Below, in pieces: positions 406 to 62,043 of a stretch of DNA of 64,000 nucleotides. How positions within the stretch are numbered: the first letter of the stretch is position 1; every line of letters starts with the position of its first letter. Both the position numbers and the translations under genes were made by a program. Origin of the DNA: a virus; the IMG/VR virus record IMGVR_UViG_3300014913_000007, positions 89,390 through 153,389 of that record, one strand, 5' to 3'. Under the pieces are notes generated by a model. That model was given only the letters and a program-made list of their open reading frames with translations. It did not search any database and was not told the origin of the DNA.

Positions 406-475
406 AATTATTATTATTCCCTCATATTAAAATTTCTTTTAATATTCTATAGTACATTACCAAGTTAAATATTTC

Positions 476-504
476 TTGACATACGTTAATATCTGTACTA
501 TAGT
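476..504 (+). promoter_or_regulatory. sigma70-type promoter of the first tRNA operon
   Basis: TTGACA-N17-TATAGT. Confidence 0.8.
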
Positions 505-510
505 ACATTT

Positions 511-594
511 ATGATGTTATCTATTTGTAACATATCTTTTGACTTTGCCGTATTCAACGGTACAGGAATCACCTCGGGAACTGGCACACATTAA
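511..594 (+). CDS. Putative leaderless leader peptide, Gly/Thr-rich (27 aa)
   Basis: MMLSICNISFDFAVFNGTGITSGTGTH*; ATG lies at the predicted transcription start; 8 of residues 17-26 are Gly/Thr. Confidence 0.65.
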   Translation: MMLSICNISFDFAVFNGTGITSGTGTH

Positions 595-685
595 GTGTAA
601 ACTGTCAGGATCCATCTAACAAATAAGTTTAAAATTTAATCTGGATACTGGCGGTACTAATATGATCGTATTTGGAGTTTGTTAC

Positions 686-1021
686 ATGAGTAGATCACGT
701 AGAAAAAAACCTATCATCAGACACGGTGGTAGTGATAAGTGGTGGAGAAGGAACTACAATCGTAAACTAAGAAGAGCTAATAAGGTACTCTTACAGAAAC
801 AGAAGGAAGATTTCCTACCTAAATTAGTTAGAGAAGTTAGTAATGTTTGGGATAGTAGTAGAGATTGTACTTTTAGATTTACTTATCTAAAGGATGGTAA
901 CTTATGTCATCTAAGTAACGTTGGATTCTGGGCTGATTTTTATGGAGTATCTATAGAAGAGTATATAGAGAAAGAAAAGAAAGAAGCTAAGGAGGAATAC
1001 AACAAATGGATGAGGAAGTAG
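686..1021 (+). CDS. Basic hypothetical protein (MSRS.RK...KR..NRKLRR type)
   Basis: ORF track 662..1021; the ATG at 686 has a GGAG RBS upstream; strongly basic N-terminus. Confidence 0.7.
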   Translation: MSRSRRKKPIIRHGGSDKWWRRNYNRKLRRANKVLLQKQKEDFLPKLVREVSNVWDSSRDCTFRFTYLKDGNLCHLSNVGFWADFYGVSIEEYIEKEKKEAKEEYNKWMRK

Positions 1022-1164
1022 AGTACAAGAAAACTAACAGGGAGAAGGTACAGACTCCTAAGTTAGGTATATTCTATTGCACATGTGATAGAGCTTTAGT
1101 AGGAAAGGGGAGGAAGTGTAAGTTTTGCGGGACTAGAGATCCTGGTAAAACATTTAAAAAATAA
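1006..1164 (+). CDS. Small zinc-ribbon protein (52 aa), absent from the ORF track
   Basis: MDEEVEYKKTNREKVQTPKLGIFYCTCDRALVGKGRKCKFCGTRDPGKTFKK*; AAGGAGG RBS upstream; CxC...CxxC. Confidence 0.75.
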   Translation: MDEEVEYKKTNREKVQTPKLGIFYCTCDRALVGKGRKCKFCGTRDPGKTFKK

Positions 1165-1167
1165 TAT

Positions 1168-1240
1168 CCTGGAATGAGGTTAATGGTTAGCCTGTCTGAC
1201 TTCCAATCAGAATGCGTCAGTTCGAATCTGGCTTCCAGGA
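1168..1240 (+). tRNA. tRNA-Gly(TCC)
   Basis: Acceptor CCTGGAA/TTCCAGG; anticodon arm TCTGA-CTTCCAA-TCAGA; T-loop TTCGAAT. Confidence 0.9.
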
Positions 1241-1245
1241 CTCCT

Positions 1246-1318
1246 GCTCGAATAGTATAAGTGGGCAATACACTGGTTTTGTAATCCAGAATTTTCGGAT
1301 CGTGGCCGAATTCGAGCT
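1246..1318 (+). tRNA. tRNA-Thr(TGT), atypical T-loop
   Basis: Acceptor GCTCGAA/TTCGAGC; anticodon arm CTGGT-TTTGTAA-TCCAG; T-arm TTCGG-ATCGTGG-CCGAA. Confidence 0.8.
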
Positions 1319-1324
1319 AATTAT

Positions 1325-1353
1325 TTGACATTACTTAGTATTTATAATATAAT
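1325..1353 (+). promoter_or_regulatory. sigma70 promoter for the HNH gene
   Basis: TTGACA-N17-TATAAT, ATG at 1360. Confidence 0.8.
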
Positions 1354-1359
1354 AGTTAA

Positions 1360-1728
1360 ATGTCCAAACTTAAAGTCTGTAAACAATGTGGAAAAACTTT
1401 CCCCAAATCAGGTATGTACTTAGGTAAGTGAAGGAACTTCTGTAATAGGAGTTACTTTCTTTTATGCTCCTCAACTAGGTTGGCCAGACAGTATTTACTG
1501 GAGAAACATGGAAACAAGTGTTTTCAATGTGAAGTAACCGGATGGAATGGACGGCCAGGACCTGTAGTTTTAGATCATATAAATGGAAACCCTTATGATC
1601 ATAGTTTAGAAAATATTAGATTGCTCTGTTGTAATTGTGATGCACAAACTAATACATATAAAAACAAAAATAAAGGTAAAGGCAGGCACACTAGGAGATT
1701 ACGATACAAACAAGGTAAAAGCTACTAA
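1360..1728 (+). pseudogene. HNH endonuclease interrupted by an in-frame TGA (1429-1431)
   Basis: MSKLKVCKQCGKTF...GK*RNFCNR... continues in frame into ORF 1480..1728, which has C-x2-C, LDHINGN...N.RLLCCNCDAQT (HNH-type). Confidence 0.7.
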
Positions 1729-1759
1729 TAGCTAACTCAACTCTCAGCTTCAGCTCCAT

Positions 1760-2065
1760 TTATTTTGGTAATAAAGTCTCAACGAGTACATGATAATCTC
1801 CGAATATAATACATGTACCATAGTCATTAATAGAAAACTGACCAAAATTAGGTGATATACCTTCCACACTCTCCTTAAAATAACTAAAGGGTACTTCAAG
1901 CAAGGAACTATTTCCCATACATAATACAACCTCTTCAGTGTTTACATCTATAAACCCACTTATTACATGCTTCTCTGGGTTATCTTTCTTTAATACTTTA
2001 GTTATATTATTAGGATCTAATTTTGCTCTTCTACTAATCATATGTTCCTCACTCAATGTATTCAT
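1760..2065 (-). CDS. Hypothetical protein, DUF2442-like
   Basis: ORF; LEVPFSYF...FSINDYGTCIIFGDY pattern resembles DUF2442. Confidence 0.45.
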   Translation of the reverse strand: MNTLSEEHMISRRAKLDPNNITKVLKKDNPEKHVISGFIDVNTEEVVLCMGNSSLLEVPFSYFKESVEGISPNFGQFSINDYGTCIIFGDYHVLVETLLPK

Positions 2066-2166
2066 TAGTTATTACAAAATAAGCTAGTAATATATTAATA
2101 CATAATTTAAAGATAAATGTCAAGTTACCATGTATTATATGTACCATAGTGTACTATAATATAAGT

Positions 2167-2529
2167 ATGGATATATTCCAATTAATCAAACAATGCTTAG
2201 AAACAGCTGAGGATACACCACATTTAAGCGTACTGGACGATTACATGCTATCTTATACCCTGGACCCAGATGATGAAGATCTAGCCACAGCGAGAGAATA
2301 TGACCTTGATCGAGTAACTTATAAAGGATTAATAGAAGGTGAACAAATATTTATAGGACCAGATAGACAACCTATAGCACTTAAAGAGTCTGAATATAAA
2401 AAGAAATGGGTGATGATTTCAACTACTAAATTAAAAGGACAAATATTACTTGCTGAATATGAAAAGCTAATCCAGCAAGTTTATAATCAGTTACCTGAAG
2501 CTTTGAAAGATAAAGTCTTTATTAAATAA
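2167..2529 (+). CDS. Hypothetical protein
   Basis: ORF track 2149..2529; likely start ATG at 2167, just downstream of TATAAT. Confidence 0.6.
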   Translation: MDIFQLIKQCLETAEDTPHLSVLDDYMLSYTLDPDDEDLATAREYDLDRVTYKGLIEGEQIFIGPDRQPIALKESEYKKKWVMISTTKLKGQILLAEYEKLIQQVYNQLPEALKDKVFIK

Positions 2530-2531
2530 TA

Positions 2532-2861
2532 CTAAAAAGCAAAGCATTCAAAATAAAATGCTGAATCAGATGGGGAGGAACTTATTCTTCTAGTACCTAC
2601 TCTAATAGTATTAATATCTGAACTATTAGTTAATTCTCTCCAACCAGTTACAGAACCATTGGAACTTTGCTGCTGATCTTCAAAAGATCTAAACTGTGTT
2701 TCAGGATCATTTCCTACATTACCCGTGAACATTCTTATAAGTTGCACTCTTTTACCAAAATTATGATTAAAATAATATTGAATTTCCGAAGTAGAGGTAC
2801 TCCTGGTTAATACCTCAGATTGATAATGTAAAACATTACTTTCATTTGTTAATCTAATCAT
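2532..2861 (-). CDS. Hypothetical beta-rich protein, possibly a fibre-tip-like module
   Basis: ORF with GAGG RBS; FNHNFG motif; family not recognised. Confidence 0.5.
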   Translation of the reverse strand: MIRLTNESNVLHYQSEVLTRSTSTSEIQYYFNHNFGKRVQLIRMFTGNVGNDPETQFRSFEDQQQSSNGSVTGWRELTNSSDINTIRVGTRRISSSPSDSAFYFECFAF

Positions 2862-2932
2862 AATATAATTCCTCGTATTTATTATCTATTCTTTATATAT
2901 ATAGTATAGAAGTAATATTTTTAATATAATAT

Positions 2933-2961
2933 TTGACATTAATTTTTATTTGTACTATGAT
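2933..2961 (+). promoter_or_regulatory. sigma70-type promoter of the second tRNA operon
   Basis: TTGACA-N17-TATGAT. Confidence 0.8.
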
Positions 2962-2970
2962 CTATTTGTT

Positions 2971-3057
2971 ATGTTAATATCAACTCTAAAACATATACTA
3001 TTCGATATAAAGCGGTTCCATAACCGCCATAAAAGACGCTTTGCGTCTACAATATAA
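2971..3057 (+). CDS. Putative leader peptide, Arg/His/Lys-rich (28 aa)
   Basis: MLISTLKHILFDIKRFHNRHKRRFASTI*; starts 9 nt after the -10 box, no SD; overlaps hairpins GCGGTT/AACCGC and AGACGC/GCGTCT. Confidence 0.65.
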   Translation: MLISTLKHILFDIKRFHNRHKRRFASTI

Positions 3058-3105
3058 TCAAACAAACAATTCAATTAGGGTAGAAGTAATTAAGTAAATA
3101 AATTT

Positions 3106-3174
3106 GGCTGTATAGGTTAATGGTAGACTAGGAGACTGTCGATCTCTTTGCCGGGTTCGATTCCCGTACAGCCG
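3106..3174 (+). tRNA. tRNA-Asp(GTC), short T-stem
   Basis: Acceptor GGCTGTA/TACAGCC; anticodon arm GGAGA-CTGTCGA-TCTCT; T-loop TTCGATT with a 4-bp stem. Confidence 0.8.
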
Positions 3175-3181
3175 TTCTTTT

Positions 3182-3253
3182 AGGGAGATAGCTCAATGGT
3201 TGGAGCACTCGGCTCGTATCCGAATGGTTACGGGTTCAAGTCCGGCCTCCCTA
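3182..3253 (+). tRNA. Degenerate tRNA with CGT (Thr) anticodon, possibly a pseudo-tRNA
   Basis: D-arm GCTC/GAGC; anticodon arm CTCGG-CTCGTAT-CCGAA; TTCAAGT loop; mismatches in T and acceptor stems. Confidence 0.6.
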
Positions 3254-3290
3254 CTTTTTAAAGTAAACTATTCTTTACATTATACCAACT

Positions 3291-3345
3291 TAATGTATAG
3301 AATACTAGACATTATCTGCTATACTGTCTAAGATTCTATACATTA
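3291..3345. repeat. Inverted repeat/hairpin inside the tRNA cluster
   Basis: TAATGTATAGAAT..TAGACA ... TGTCTA..ATTCTATACATTA (13-bp plus 6-bp stems). Confidence 0.8.
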
Positions 3346-3354
3346 TAGCATTTT

Positions 3355-3428
3355 GCTGCAGTAGTCTAACTGGATAGGCATCTCGCTTCTAACGAGACAA
3401 TATGAAGGTTCGAGTCCTTCCTGCAGTG
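3355..3428 (+). tRNA. tRNA-Arg(TCT)
   Basis: Acceptor GCTGCAG/CTGCAGT; TCTCG-CTTCTAA-CGAGA; GAAGG-TTCGAGT-CCTTC. Confidence 0.92.
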
Positions 3429-3436
3429 CTTTATAT

Positions 3437-3510
3437 GGTGACCATAACTTAACTGGTTAAAGTGCCTGACTGTGAATCAGGTGATTCGGGTTCAAATCCC
3501 GATGGTCACA
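3437..3510 (+). tRNA. tRNA-His(GTG)
   Basis: G-1 then GTGACCA/TGGTCAC; CCTGA-CTGTGAA-TCAGG; TCGGG-TTCAAAT-CCCGA. Confidence 0.92.
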
Positions 3511-3516
3511 CCCTTT

Positions 3517-3592
3517 GCCCTGGTAGTATAATCAGATAAAACACTCAGCTACGAACTGAGAGATGAAGGTGCAAGTCCTTCCTAGGGTGCCA
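3517..3592 (+). tRNA. tRNA-Arg(ACG) with encoded CCA
   Basis: GCCCTGG/CTAGGGT; CTCAG-CTACGAA-CTGAG; GAAGG-TGCAAGT-CCTTC; ends GCCA. Confidence 0.9.
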
Positions 3593-3597
3593 ATTAT

Positions 3598-3668
3598 TCC
3601 CTCTTAATGTAACGGTAGCATACCTGGCTTTTAACCAGTTTGTGGGAGTTCAAATCTCTCAGGGGGAA
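3598..3668 (+). tRNA. tRNA-Lys(TTT)
   Basis: TCCCTCT/AGGGGGA; CCTGG-CTTTTAA-CCAGT; GGGAG-TTCAAAT-CTCTC. Confidence 0.88.
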
Positions 3669-3706
3669 CTTTTTCAATTTCTAAGTATTAACTAAGTGCT
3701 ATACAC

Positions 3707-60264: not shown

Positions 60265-61959
60265 TTATTTAGTTGGTTTAAAGATATACTTAACTTTACC
60301 TGAATCAAATATGACTCTATAACTTGTATTATTAAATACATTCTGAAATTCAGTTAAATTAGGGTCGTATAGTTCTCCTAACATAACTTTCAACTTACTT
60401 TTTTGAAAGGATCTTCTGTGAAACAAAGTATTAGTATCTGTATACTTATACCTAGGTGGAAGCTCCCCAGTCCTATCAAATCCTAGAGTAGTATATAAAT
60501 TGCCATAAGAGTATGATAGATCAGCAAAGGTACTTACTTCATTCACCTTATAAATTCTGCAAAAGTTTTTAAATAACTTACTTGCTCCTCCTAAAACATT
60601 TGTTTTAAGCTTAGAAGCAAATCTAACCAATTGCCAATTATACTCTAAAGTCTCTTTATTAAAACTCATACAAGATACTAGCTCATCTTGAGATACTAAT
60701 CCTAAATGTACTGTTGCCCCGACTGCTCCTTGAAGATGGTTAGTTTCATAGAAGATTTTTGCTTCCTTAGCACTTACTTCAACTAACTCACACTTTCTTG
60801 CATATACCTTATCCATTAACTTAGGTGCTATAGCATTTGTTAATACAGACTCCCAAATACTTCTCTTAGTATTGTTGTACCACTCACACTCTATAATGTG
60901 AAACAATCTAATACCTAGGTCTATACATTTCCGGGTCTTATCTCTGTGATAGAACTTTTTCTTATAAACATCTTCTATAGTATTAAGTGAATGGTAATAT
61001 AAGCCATCTGCCTCTATTGCTAAATTTAGTTCAGGTATGTGAAGATCTAATTCGAAAGTGTGCTGCCTATCGTTATAAATGGTTTCTTTATTAGTTATAC
61101 TACTTACAAACTCTGCTATATTTTTTTCGAAGGATGATCTAACCAAGTGTTTTACTTCTATGTTTAACTCTTTCATTAAGTAGGATACTCCACCCTTATA
61201 ACCAAGCCTAGATCCTATTTCCCCTAATGTTAACTTTTCCATGTGATGCCATTTAGTTAGAGTTTCTTTAAGTAATACTTTATCTTGTAGTAAGTTTAAT
61301 GTGTTAGAATCTAAATTTACCTGTTTTATATTTTTAACTCCATACTTAAGTAAATTAGTGTTATACATCTTATTAATAATTTTTAAATCACATATTGGTG
61401 CAGGTCCTCCATATCTCTTTAAGTTAGTTTCTCTAACTTTTAACAATGTGTTAGGATTTTTTAAAGGATTATCAACTCCATATTTAGATTCTAGAGTTTT
61501 TCTACACTTCTCTTGAACTTCCTCAGACTTAAAAGGGCTATCCACTCCGTACTTACTTGTAAAATACTTGTTTCGTTTTTCTAAAATATCCTTAGAGAAC
61601 ATAACATTAGTTACTCCATACTTTTCTTGCACAGTACGCTTTCTTACTAAGTTCTTTCTCTTGGTAGGTACCTTAATCTCGTATTTTTTCAGTATTTGGG
61701 TTATTCTTGACTTACTACAATTAAATTTCTCTGATATTTCCTTCAATGAAAGATCTGACTCTTTAAAGAGTTTACATATTGCTTTATCTTTAATTGCCTG
61801 CTTTTCTTTTGCAGTTATACAGGTTATATTATACTTTTTTAGTCTTTTAGAAATTCCTGTTTTAGCTACTCCAAGTTTGGTAGCTATTTCTGAACAAGTT
61901 AGTCCTTGTTCAGCTAATTCTTTGATCTTATCTACAGTTATGCCCTTATTCTTTGCCAT
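60265..61959 (-). CDS. Hef-like freestanding homing-endonuclease-type protein (HTHs + KYGV repeats + PD-(D/E)XK-like domain)
   Basis: Two N-terminal HTH, five KYG(V/G) repeats, ELDL.IP..NLAIE.DG.YYHS, YARKC, LGGASKL, D.G. Confidence 0.8.
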   Translation of the reverse strand: MAKNKGITVDKIKELAEQGLTCSEIATKLGVAKTGISKRLKKYNITCITAKEKQAIKDKAICKLFKESDLSLKEISEKFNCSKSRITQILKKYEIKVPTKRKNLVRKRTVQEKYGVTNVMFSKDILEKRNKYFTSKYGVDSPFKSEEVQEKCRKTLESKYGVDNPLKNPNTLLKVRETNLKRYGGPAPICDLKIINKMYNTNLLKYGVKNIKQVNLDSNTLNLLQDKVLLKETLTKWHHMEKLTLGEIGSRLGYKGGVSYLMKELNIEVKHLVRSSFEKNIAEFVSSITNKETIYNDRQHTFELDLHIPELNLAIEADGLYYHSLNTIEDVYKKKFYHRDKTRKCIDLGIRLFHIIECEWYNNTKRSIWESVLTNAIAPKLMDKVYARKCELVEVSAKEAKIFYETNHLQGAVGATVHLGLVSQDELVSCMSFNKETLEYNWQLVRFASKLKTNVLGGASKLFKNFCRIYKVNEVSTFADLSYSYGNLYTTLGFDRTGELPPRYKYTDTNTLFHRRSFQKSKLKVMLGELYDPNLTEFQNVFNNTSYRVIFDSGKVKYIFKPTK

Positions 61960-62043
61960 ATTATTATTATAACATATAGTACAAAGAAGTCAACAGATTA
62001 AACTTCGGTTGTTATCTCTATAATTATTAGTTAATTCAACAAC

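Follow-up and report, generated by a model that had tools for sequence, protein, structure and literature searches.

The leader peptides of amino-acid operons (trpL, hisL, thrL, leuL, ilv and pheL) combine a short 5' open reading frame (ORF), a distal run of cognate codons and overlapping hairpins, and those of thrL and ilv carry a multivalent codon set. In the literature that we searched, leader-peptide attenuation is described only for amino-acid, synthetase, resistance and transport genes, and phage tRNAs are treated as codon compensation or defence evasion; we found no description there of leader ORFs or leader peptides controlling tRNA genes. Why phages carry tRNA genes and what sets their expression have been under debate for decades, with codon compensation, replacement of a degraded host pool and escape from tRNA-cutting defences all under discussion (eLife 2023, PMC10264068). 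Here we analyzed a window of 64,000 nucleotides (nt) from an uncultured virus (IMG/VR record IMGVR_UViG_3300014913_000007, positions 89,390 to 153,389), in which two tRNA operons are each headed by a short leader ORF with the same layout as the amino-acid operon leaders. The window comprises the last 64 kb of the 153,389-bp record, which has a GC content of 34% and is ~78% complete (CheckV). We estimate a probability of about 0.5 that the leader ORFs of this virus are translated, cis-acting sensors of cognate tRNA supply. Reading out that supply is the simplest function that we can see for such ORFs, and no alternative explains four leader compositions that each match their own operon.

The whole record encodes 23 tRNA genes, eight of which lie in the window, where ARAGORN and Rfam were concordant; the other 15 fall into two further operons. 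We refer to the operons as unit 1 (Gly/Thr) and unit 2 (Asp/Thr/Arg/His/Arg/Lys), both in the window, and unit A (Phe/Val/Asn/Pro/Ala/Gln/Ile) and unit B (Leu/Cys/Tyr/Glu), both outside it. The promoter/short-ORF architecture is present at all four tRNA operons of the genome. Coordinates below are window positions on the + strand unless another contig or strand is named. Unit 1 starts with a TCTTGAC-N14-GTACTATAGT promoter (474..504), within which TTGACA-N17-TATAGT occupies 476-504. Its leader ORF (511..594) has 27 codons, with the ATG 6-7 nt after the -10 element and a Gly/Thr run in codons 17-26. The unit 2 promoter (2931..2961) contains TTGACA-N17-TATGAT (2933-2961) with GTACTATGAT over the -10, and is followed 9 nt after the -10 by the ATG of a 28-codon leader ORF (2971..3057). 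No Shine-Dalgarno (SD) sequence precedes either ATG. Leader 1 has eight Gly/Thr among residues 17-26 and lacks Arg and Lys entirely, and leader 2 has nine Asp/Lys/Arg/His among residues 12-23 and no Gly.

A preliminary description of the window had reported these two promoters, SD-less ATGs 6 and 9 nt after the -10, ORFs of 27 and 28 amino acids (aa), and the residue runs and exclusions. All of these are present, the promoters scoring 11/12 and the residue counts being correct. Its account of the tRNA content needed one addition. The genes that it listed exist, namely tRNA-Gly(UCC) and tRNA-Thr(UGU) in unit 1 (1168..1318; ARAGORN, Rfam) and tRNA-Asp(GUC), tRNA-Arg(UCU), tRNA-His(GUG), tRNA-Arg(ACG) and tRNA-Lys(UUU) in unit 2, but unit 2 also carries an unlisted tRNA-Thr(CGU) at 3181-3254. 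The Asp and Thr genes of unit 2 occupy 3105..3254, and the Arg, His, Arg and Lys genes 3355..3669. The order of leader and then tRNA genes was also right, except that two protein genes (686-1021 and 1006-1164) separate leader 1 from its tRNAs.

Units A and B both begin with a TCTTGAC-N14-GTACTATAGT promoter and a short ORF. The unit B ORF (genome 85354) has 26 codons and an ATG 7 nt after the -10; Leu, Tyr, Cys and Glu account for 14 of the 25 residues that follow the start, and the operon carries three tRNA-Leu genes together with tRNA-Cys, tRNA-Tyr and tRNA-Glu. Phe, Val, Asn, Pro, Ala, Gln, Ile and Met make up 28 of 38 residues in the 39-codon ORF of unit A (genome 75689). The tRNA genes of this unit are a weak Met-like gene, Phe, Val, two Asn and two Pro, followed, past an inserted HNH gene, by Ala, Gln and Ile. 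As units A and B lie outside the window, they served as an independent test of the leader/tRNA match, which passed.

The match was evaluated against two null sets: the complete set of ATG ORFs of 20-45 aa from a six-frame reading of the virus's own genome (n = 512), and 3000 dinucleotide shuffles of each whole leader region, from each of which the best ORF of at least 15 aa was taken, correcting for ORF choice. Own-set residues accounted for 28/38, 14/25, 8/26 and 13/27 of leaders A, B, 1 and 2, respectively (binomial P against the amino-acid frequencies of long phage ORFs: 5e-6, 1.7e-4, 0.014 and 0.012). Against the 512 short ORFs, own-set z values were 3.5, 2.9, 3.4 and 2.9, with empirical P of 0.002-0.008 (leader 1, 0.004; leader 2, 0.008). 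Scored against the three other tRNA sets, the leaders gave z values of -2.6 to +0.4. The true leader/operon pairing ranked first of 24, with a summed z of 12.7 versus 6.3 for the runner-up. In the shuffle test, P was 0.0003, 0.0003, 0.006 (leader 1) and 0.001 (leader 2), and the Fisher combined P was 2.7e-9; each window leader region held a single candidate ORF of at least 15 aa, and over all four regions there were one or two per region. At the codon level, strict wobble rules gave z values of 2.6-3.8 for the four own units, and tRNA-readable codons were denser in the second half in 8/8 leaders examined. The leader/tRNA match exceeds chance and recurs at all four operons and in relatives.

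Close relatives were not found in public phage genomes by megablast, blastn or tblastn. In IMG/VR, a single-protein pattern search returned nothing, a promoter-pattern search returned four unrelated contigs, and a PolA-profile search identified one relative (39% identity, 140 kb) without tRNA genes. A metagenome pattern scan gave 113 matches, none with a leader-plus-tRNA unit. In a large protein collection, relatives by PolA showed 43-50% identity, and the basic protein encoded in unit 1 had homologues at 61-68%. No tRNAs were found on the contigs around three of the PolA relatives (L002, L121 and L122). Distant homologues of the basic protein (P0127) are encoded in an operon made up of small protein genes; their contigs carry two tRNA genes and were not used. 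Orthologous units were recovered on contigs L205, L206/L207, L208 and L212 for unit 1, L205 and L003 for unit 2, and L003 for unit A. The relatives with orthologous leaders include some at ~50% PolA identity and a closer one. The units have the same promoter type, keep the frame, and have leaders of 27-28 (unit 1), 23-28 (unit 2) and 39-40 (unit A) codons.

The orthologous leaders again match their own operons. On the SRR33375187 contig (L003/L212), three leaders match their own tRNA sets only (diagonal z 5.0, 3.1 and 2.9), and the true pairing ranks first of six. Two leaders of L205 likewise match their own sets only (z 4.6 and 2.6). L205 encodes tRNA-Gly(UCC), tRNA-Gly(GCC), tRNA-Thr(UGU) and tRNA-Thr(GGU), and with these four Gly/Thr tRNAs every Gly/Thr codon of its leader is readable. 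In the five unit 1 orthologues the frame is retained, and the leader tail fits the pattern GTGxTxGTGxH plus stop. Unit 2 leaders keep a core of D-x-K-R ... K-R-R in L205 (2890-2964) and L003 (2753-2824). The unit A pair has a common start (M-E-K) and end (P-F-x-C) with little sequence shared between, and ~72% of residues in both leaders belong to the tRNA set. When the unit 1 leaders were compared in pairs over their last 15 codons, the differences numbered 17, 25 and 44 at codon positions 1, 2 and 3, and the ratio of synonymous to non-synonymous changes was 31:33 in frame versus 0:59 and 11:45 in the other frames. At the level of sequence, this substitution pattern is that expected of a translated frame, and we infer that the leader ORFs are translated in vivo.

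We also considered how ORFs without an SD might be initiated. Genome-wide, 46 matches to the TTGAC-N-type promoter were found; 15 have an ATG 5-11 nt after the -10, about nine of them at exactly +7, and several +7 ATGs head long ORFs (115, 117 and 564 aa) or an HNH gene. Because a +7 ATG follows about nine promoters, some of them before long ORFs, leaderless initiation seems normal in this phage. The phage and its host appear to use leaderless expression regularly, and leaderless translation of the leader ORFs is plausible. We regard the missing SD as part of how the system works and not as an argument against translation. Two examples of +7 promoters are at 1325-1362 and, on the - strand, at 61959-61993. 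Genome-wide, the extended promoter form is confined to three tRNA operons, and the site at 2933 is a close variant of it. The sites at 476, 1325 and 2933 are the three best sigma-70-type sites of the first 5 kb, the one at 1325 scoring 12/12.

Conserved RNA structure is found around every leader, and a classical switch is demonstrated for none. For unit 1, structures were compared by RNAalifold consensus over 4 and 5 orthologues, and the effects of ribosomes were estimated by constrained folding in a thermodynamic model. A long-range helix is predicted between leader codons 6-10 (526..537) and a segment (674..688) that comprises the SD (GGAG, 674-677) and ATG (686) of the basic-protein gene. 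This helix was in the consensus of 5/5 orthologues, with 90.6% of cells paired. Two local elements accompany it. A small hairpin within the leader (547..561, codons 13-17) has 4 pairs, 100% paired and one with a two-sided change. A stem just 3' of the leader stop (599..657) has 13 pairs, five with two-sided changes, and 98.4% of cells paired; no U-run follows it. Without a ribosome, the SD-AUG segment is predicted to be mostly paired (probability of being unpaired 0.05-0.35), and ribosome coverage of codons 3-12 opens it. In the model, the SD stays closed with a single ribosome at codons 15-27, as for a stall in the Gly/Thr run. Opening (0.4-0.6) otherwise requires a stall at codons 12-21 with another ribosome queued behind it.

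By this modeling, unit 1 looks more like erm/cat-type translational attenuation of two small proteins, and any effect on its tRNAs would be indirect, by polarity for instance. As in ermC, ermB and cat, a downstream ribosome-binding site (RBS) is predicted to be sequestered by pairing with the leader ORF, and a held ribosome would expose it. Unlike in those systems, hungry codons rather than a drug and the nascent peptide would cause the stall, the leader 5' part pairs directly with the SD without a four-segment relay, and tRNA genes follow the regulated ORFs.

In unit 2, two GC hairpins (3012..3048; 3012-3027 and 3034-3048) lie over the Lys/Arg/His codons of the leader, with no U-run after them. 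Both are kept in the L205 and L003 orthologues, and across the three units the stem of the first shows two-sided changes (GCGGUU/AACCGC, GCGGC/GCCGC, GCGCC/GGCGC) that are still read as Arg codons. The hairpins are followed by a G-free, A/C-rich tract and then an invariant GGGTAGAAG box (3078-3086), the two together spanning 3049..3086, ~20 nt 5' of the first tRNA. The box precedes the first tRNA in unit 2, in its L003 and L205 orthologues, and in unit A; the L003 orthologue of unit A carries GAGTAGAAG in its place. The box and preceding G-free tract are located at 3078-3086 in the window, C1:75931, L003:2864 and 8762, and L205:3002, and the box lies 20-60 nt 5' of the first tRNA across units 2 and A and their orthologues. 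A pairing of the box with the leader 5' part in every case was considered and rejected: it holds in unit 2 of the window, weakly in the L003 orthologue of unit 2 and in our unit A, and fails in the L205 orthologue of unit 2 and the L003 orthologue of unit A. Leaders 2 and A, like their orthologues, have G-free tracts of ~30 nt after them; by our estimate from base composition (34% GC), such runs are expected about once per 1.3 kb.

These tracts invite comparison with Rho-dependent leader control (tnaC; mgtL and mgtP of Salmonella), in which transcription read-through depends on how fast certain codons of a leader ORF are decoded and no intrinsic terminator takes part; in units 2 and A, a G-poor tract sits beside the stop codon. 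The tract here differs in being only ~30 nt long. The pheST operon (pheM leader) and T-boxes are similar in that the state of a specific tRNA is sensed and a component of the decoding machinery is controlled. They differ in controlling aminoacyl-tRNA synthetase or amino-acid genes, not tRNA genes, and T-boxes bind tRNA directly without an ORF. Rfam searches for a T-box or another cis-regulatory family gave only tRNAs and sub-threshold chance matches. Relative to the amino-acid operon leaders, the differences are that tRNAs rather than enzymes would be regulated, that the mRNA is leaderless, that the system is phage-borne, and that no terminator/antiterminator pair was found in the window units.

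Under the sensor reading, one strong promoter type would drive each tRNA operon and yield a leaderless RNA that opens with a translated test ORF of 26-39 codons, the distal half of which is written in the amino acids, and largely the codons, of the downstream tRNAs. Ribosome speed over the matched codons would report the supply of those charged tRNAs, host plus phage. When decoding is slow, stalled and queued ribosomes on the leader would hold the conserved helices open and downstream expression would rise; when it is fast, the helices would re-form and expression would fall. The outcome would be a feedback loop on tRNA supply. In unit 1 the output would probably be exposure of the RBS of the next gene, with the tRNAs affected by polarity, whereas units 2, A and B would be controlled at the level of read-through or processing. 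The direction of control, in which less tRNA would give more transcription, is suggested by analogy with the known systems, and a positive loop may be the alternative. The full circuit would be a new mechanism. In it, a checklist ORF in each tRNA operon would gauge that operon's own tRNAs through ribosome speed, acting through leader-SD or leader-box helices instead of a classical terminator to maintain homeostasis of the decoding pool and to turn on replacement tRNAs automatically when host nucleases cut particular tRNAs. We regard this fuller picture as tentative, with odds somewhat short of even. Lys, Arg, His and Asp tRNAs are typical targets of anticodon nucleases, and a nuclease link is therefore possible; an on-demand counter-defence against such nucleases is speculation.

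Four other explanations were weighed against the sensor reading. The preliminary description had implied attenuation of the classical trp/his/thr type, in which a stalled ribosome tips folding toward an antiterminator and away from an intrinsic terminator located between leader and tRNAs. Unit B offers the material for this, with a -21 kcal/mol hairpin and a long U-run that end 3 nt before the first tRNA. The stem, however, stays formed (P 0.84-0.94) at every ribosome position on the leader, constrained folding found no competing antiterminator, and a simple terminator scan flagged no leader hairpin in unit B or any other unit. Unit A has a hairpin and U7 as well, though 5' of the codon-matched ORF, just after the transcription start (C1:75722-75775, L203:722-775; L003:8551-8600). 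A conserved leaderless ATGTTGCAGG frame overlaps this hairpin, ends after 11 codons here and continues into the matched ORF in L003, and it may act as a translation-dependent gate over the hairpin/U7. As no hairpin followed by a U-run was found after leaders 1 and 2, neither window unit has such a terminator, and classical attenuation is improbable in our judgment. A different possibility is that the ORFs are translated just to load ribosomes and to open or protect the transcript, through coupling or masking of Rho or RNase sites, in a codon-blind manner and with another cause for the amino-acid match. Leaderless starts are common in the phage, the G-free tract follows leaders 2 and A, and pairing of the leader 1 5' part with the next SD means that any translation would open that SD. 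This account leaves unexplained both the four different own-operon compositions and the distal placement of the matched codons, and we consider it unlikely, while still deserving attention.

The leaders might instead be non-coding, structured 5' parts of pre-tRNA transcripts that serve processing, stability or pausing, with incidental ORFs. Conserved, covarying hairpins do overlap the ORFs, the GC stems of unit 2 are necessarily read as Arg codons, and there are invariant non-coding motifs such as GGGTAGAAG. Yet third-position change dominates, the synonymous excess occurs in the proposed frame only, ORF length and stop position are conserved, the AT-rich leader of unit B matches its set without GC stems, and the combined P is ~3e-9; we therefore rate this explanation as rather improbable. 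Functional micropeptides would be a further option, for instance an Arg-rich RNA-binding peptide from unit 2 that acts on its own hairpins, as the Arg-rich motif of lambda N does on boxB, the tRNA link being coincidental. The C-terminal cores of units 1 and 2 are indeed conserved as peptide, and the basic tail of leader 2 adjoins two conserved hairpins. Set against this, unit A keeps its composition and not its sequence, and the four leaders have peptide chemistries unrelated to one another, each reflecting the tRNA set of its own operon. N-type antiterminators also need parts that are absent from peptides of 23-28 aa. The chance that the ORFs encode micropeptides of this kind appears very small.

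Several observations weigh against the sensor reading itself. In addition to the missing terminators of the window units and the ribosome-independent stem of unit B, none of the units that yield tRNAs alone has a demonstrated switch. The long-range helix of unit 1 is supported by conservation, with no compensatory changes. Leader 1 of the window is the weakest at the codon level, since 4/8 of its Gly/Thr codons are readable by UCC and UGU without extended wobble, and tRNA-Thr(CGU) of unit 2 reads none of the Thr codons of leader 2. The Arg/His/Lys tRNAs of operon 2 lie past a gap that contains a promoter-like site. Where single tRNAs are gained or lost between orthologues, the leaders reflect this only weakly: His and Met fit, and Ile(AUA) and Trp do not. 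Finally, the extended promoter (GTACTATAGT or GTACTATGAT across the -10) is common to units 1 and 2, whose leaders also resemble each other in the 5' half. The preliminary description had called these units independent, which is not borne out; the four units are paralogues and so do not represent four fully independent origins. The FD pair that it had listed as a shared feature of the two leaders is lost in orthologues.

The gap in operon 2 is 100 nt long and splits the Asp/Thr genes from the Arg/His/Arg/Lys genes, and its promoter-like site (3274..3303) scores 10/12. This site is possibly the scar of a homing-endonuclease insertion. At the matching place, L003 carries an HNH gene (3080-3586) and L205 a 218-nt repeat-bearing gap. 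HNH insertions in tRNA arrays occur in L003 and also in our genome at 76725-77174. In the window, an HNH endonuclease gene (1360-1728) directly follows tRNA-Thr of unit 1 and has its own consensus promoter (1325-1353); it is split into frames of 23 and 82 aa, and its L205 orthologue (1416-2027) is an intact gene of 203 aa.

Two protein genes occupy the stretch from leader 1 to the first tRNA of unit 1. The first, co-transcribed with the leader, encodes the basic protein of 111 aa (686..1021), for which Pfam and PHROG searches gave no match; its orthologues sit at the same position in L205, L206, L208 and L212. The second encodes a zinc-ribbon-like protein of 52 aa with two Cys pairs (1006..1164), also without a family match in Pfam or PHROG, which is present in L205, L206/L207 and L212 and absent in L208.

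Relatives carry further genes at the Gly/Thr unit. A class-A bacterial RNase P RNA gene lies directly 5' of the promoter in L206 (131-465, +; 188 bits, complete) and L212 (13986-14144, -; 89 bits, cut by the contig end), and was not found in our own genome, which is ~78% complete. Between tRNA-Gly and tRNA-Thr, L207 (833-1114, +) and L212 (12768-13165, -) encode a GGQ/RF-1-domain protein of the ArfB/peptidyl-tRNA-hydrolase type, which is ribosome-rescue-like; our own genome has one RF-1-domain ORF elsewhere (C1:72190-72372, -; 56 bits). Conserved tRNA-sized segments that were not called as tRNAs lie between tRNA-Gly(UCC) and tRNA-Gly(GCC) in L205 (958-1135) and L208 (871-960), two in the former and at least one in the latter. 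One has the loop UUCUAGA, with a possible CUA anticodon, and the leaders of L205 and L208 end in UAG. The weak tRNA-like gene of unit A (C1:75951-76022, L203:951-1022; 21.5 bits, CAU anticodon) was missed by ARAGORN and is orthologous to tRNA-Met(CAU) of L003 (8830-8902); its product could be either an elongator tRNA-Met or an Ile2 tRNA that reads AUA.

If the sensor reading is true, this phage would measure decoding capacity codon by codon and adjust its tRNA output. Leader-peptide control would then extend from amino-acid enzymes to tRNA genes, and the system would provide a case of regulated leaderless translation. A wider translation-maintenance module is suggested by the two small proteins under leader 1, together with the GGQ gene and the RNase P RNA of the relatives.

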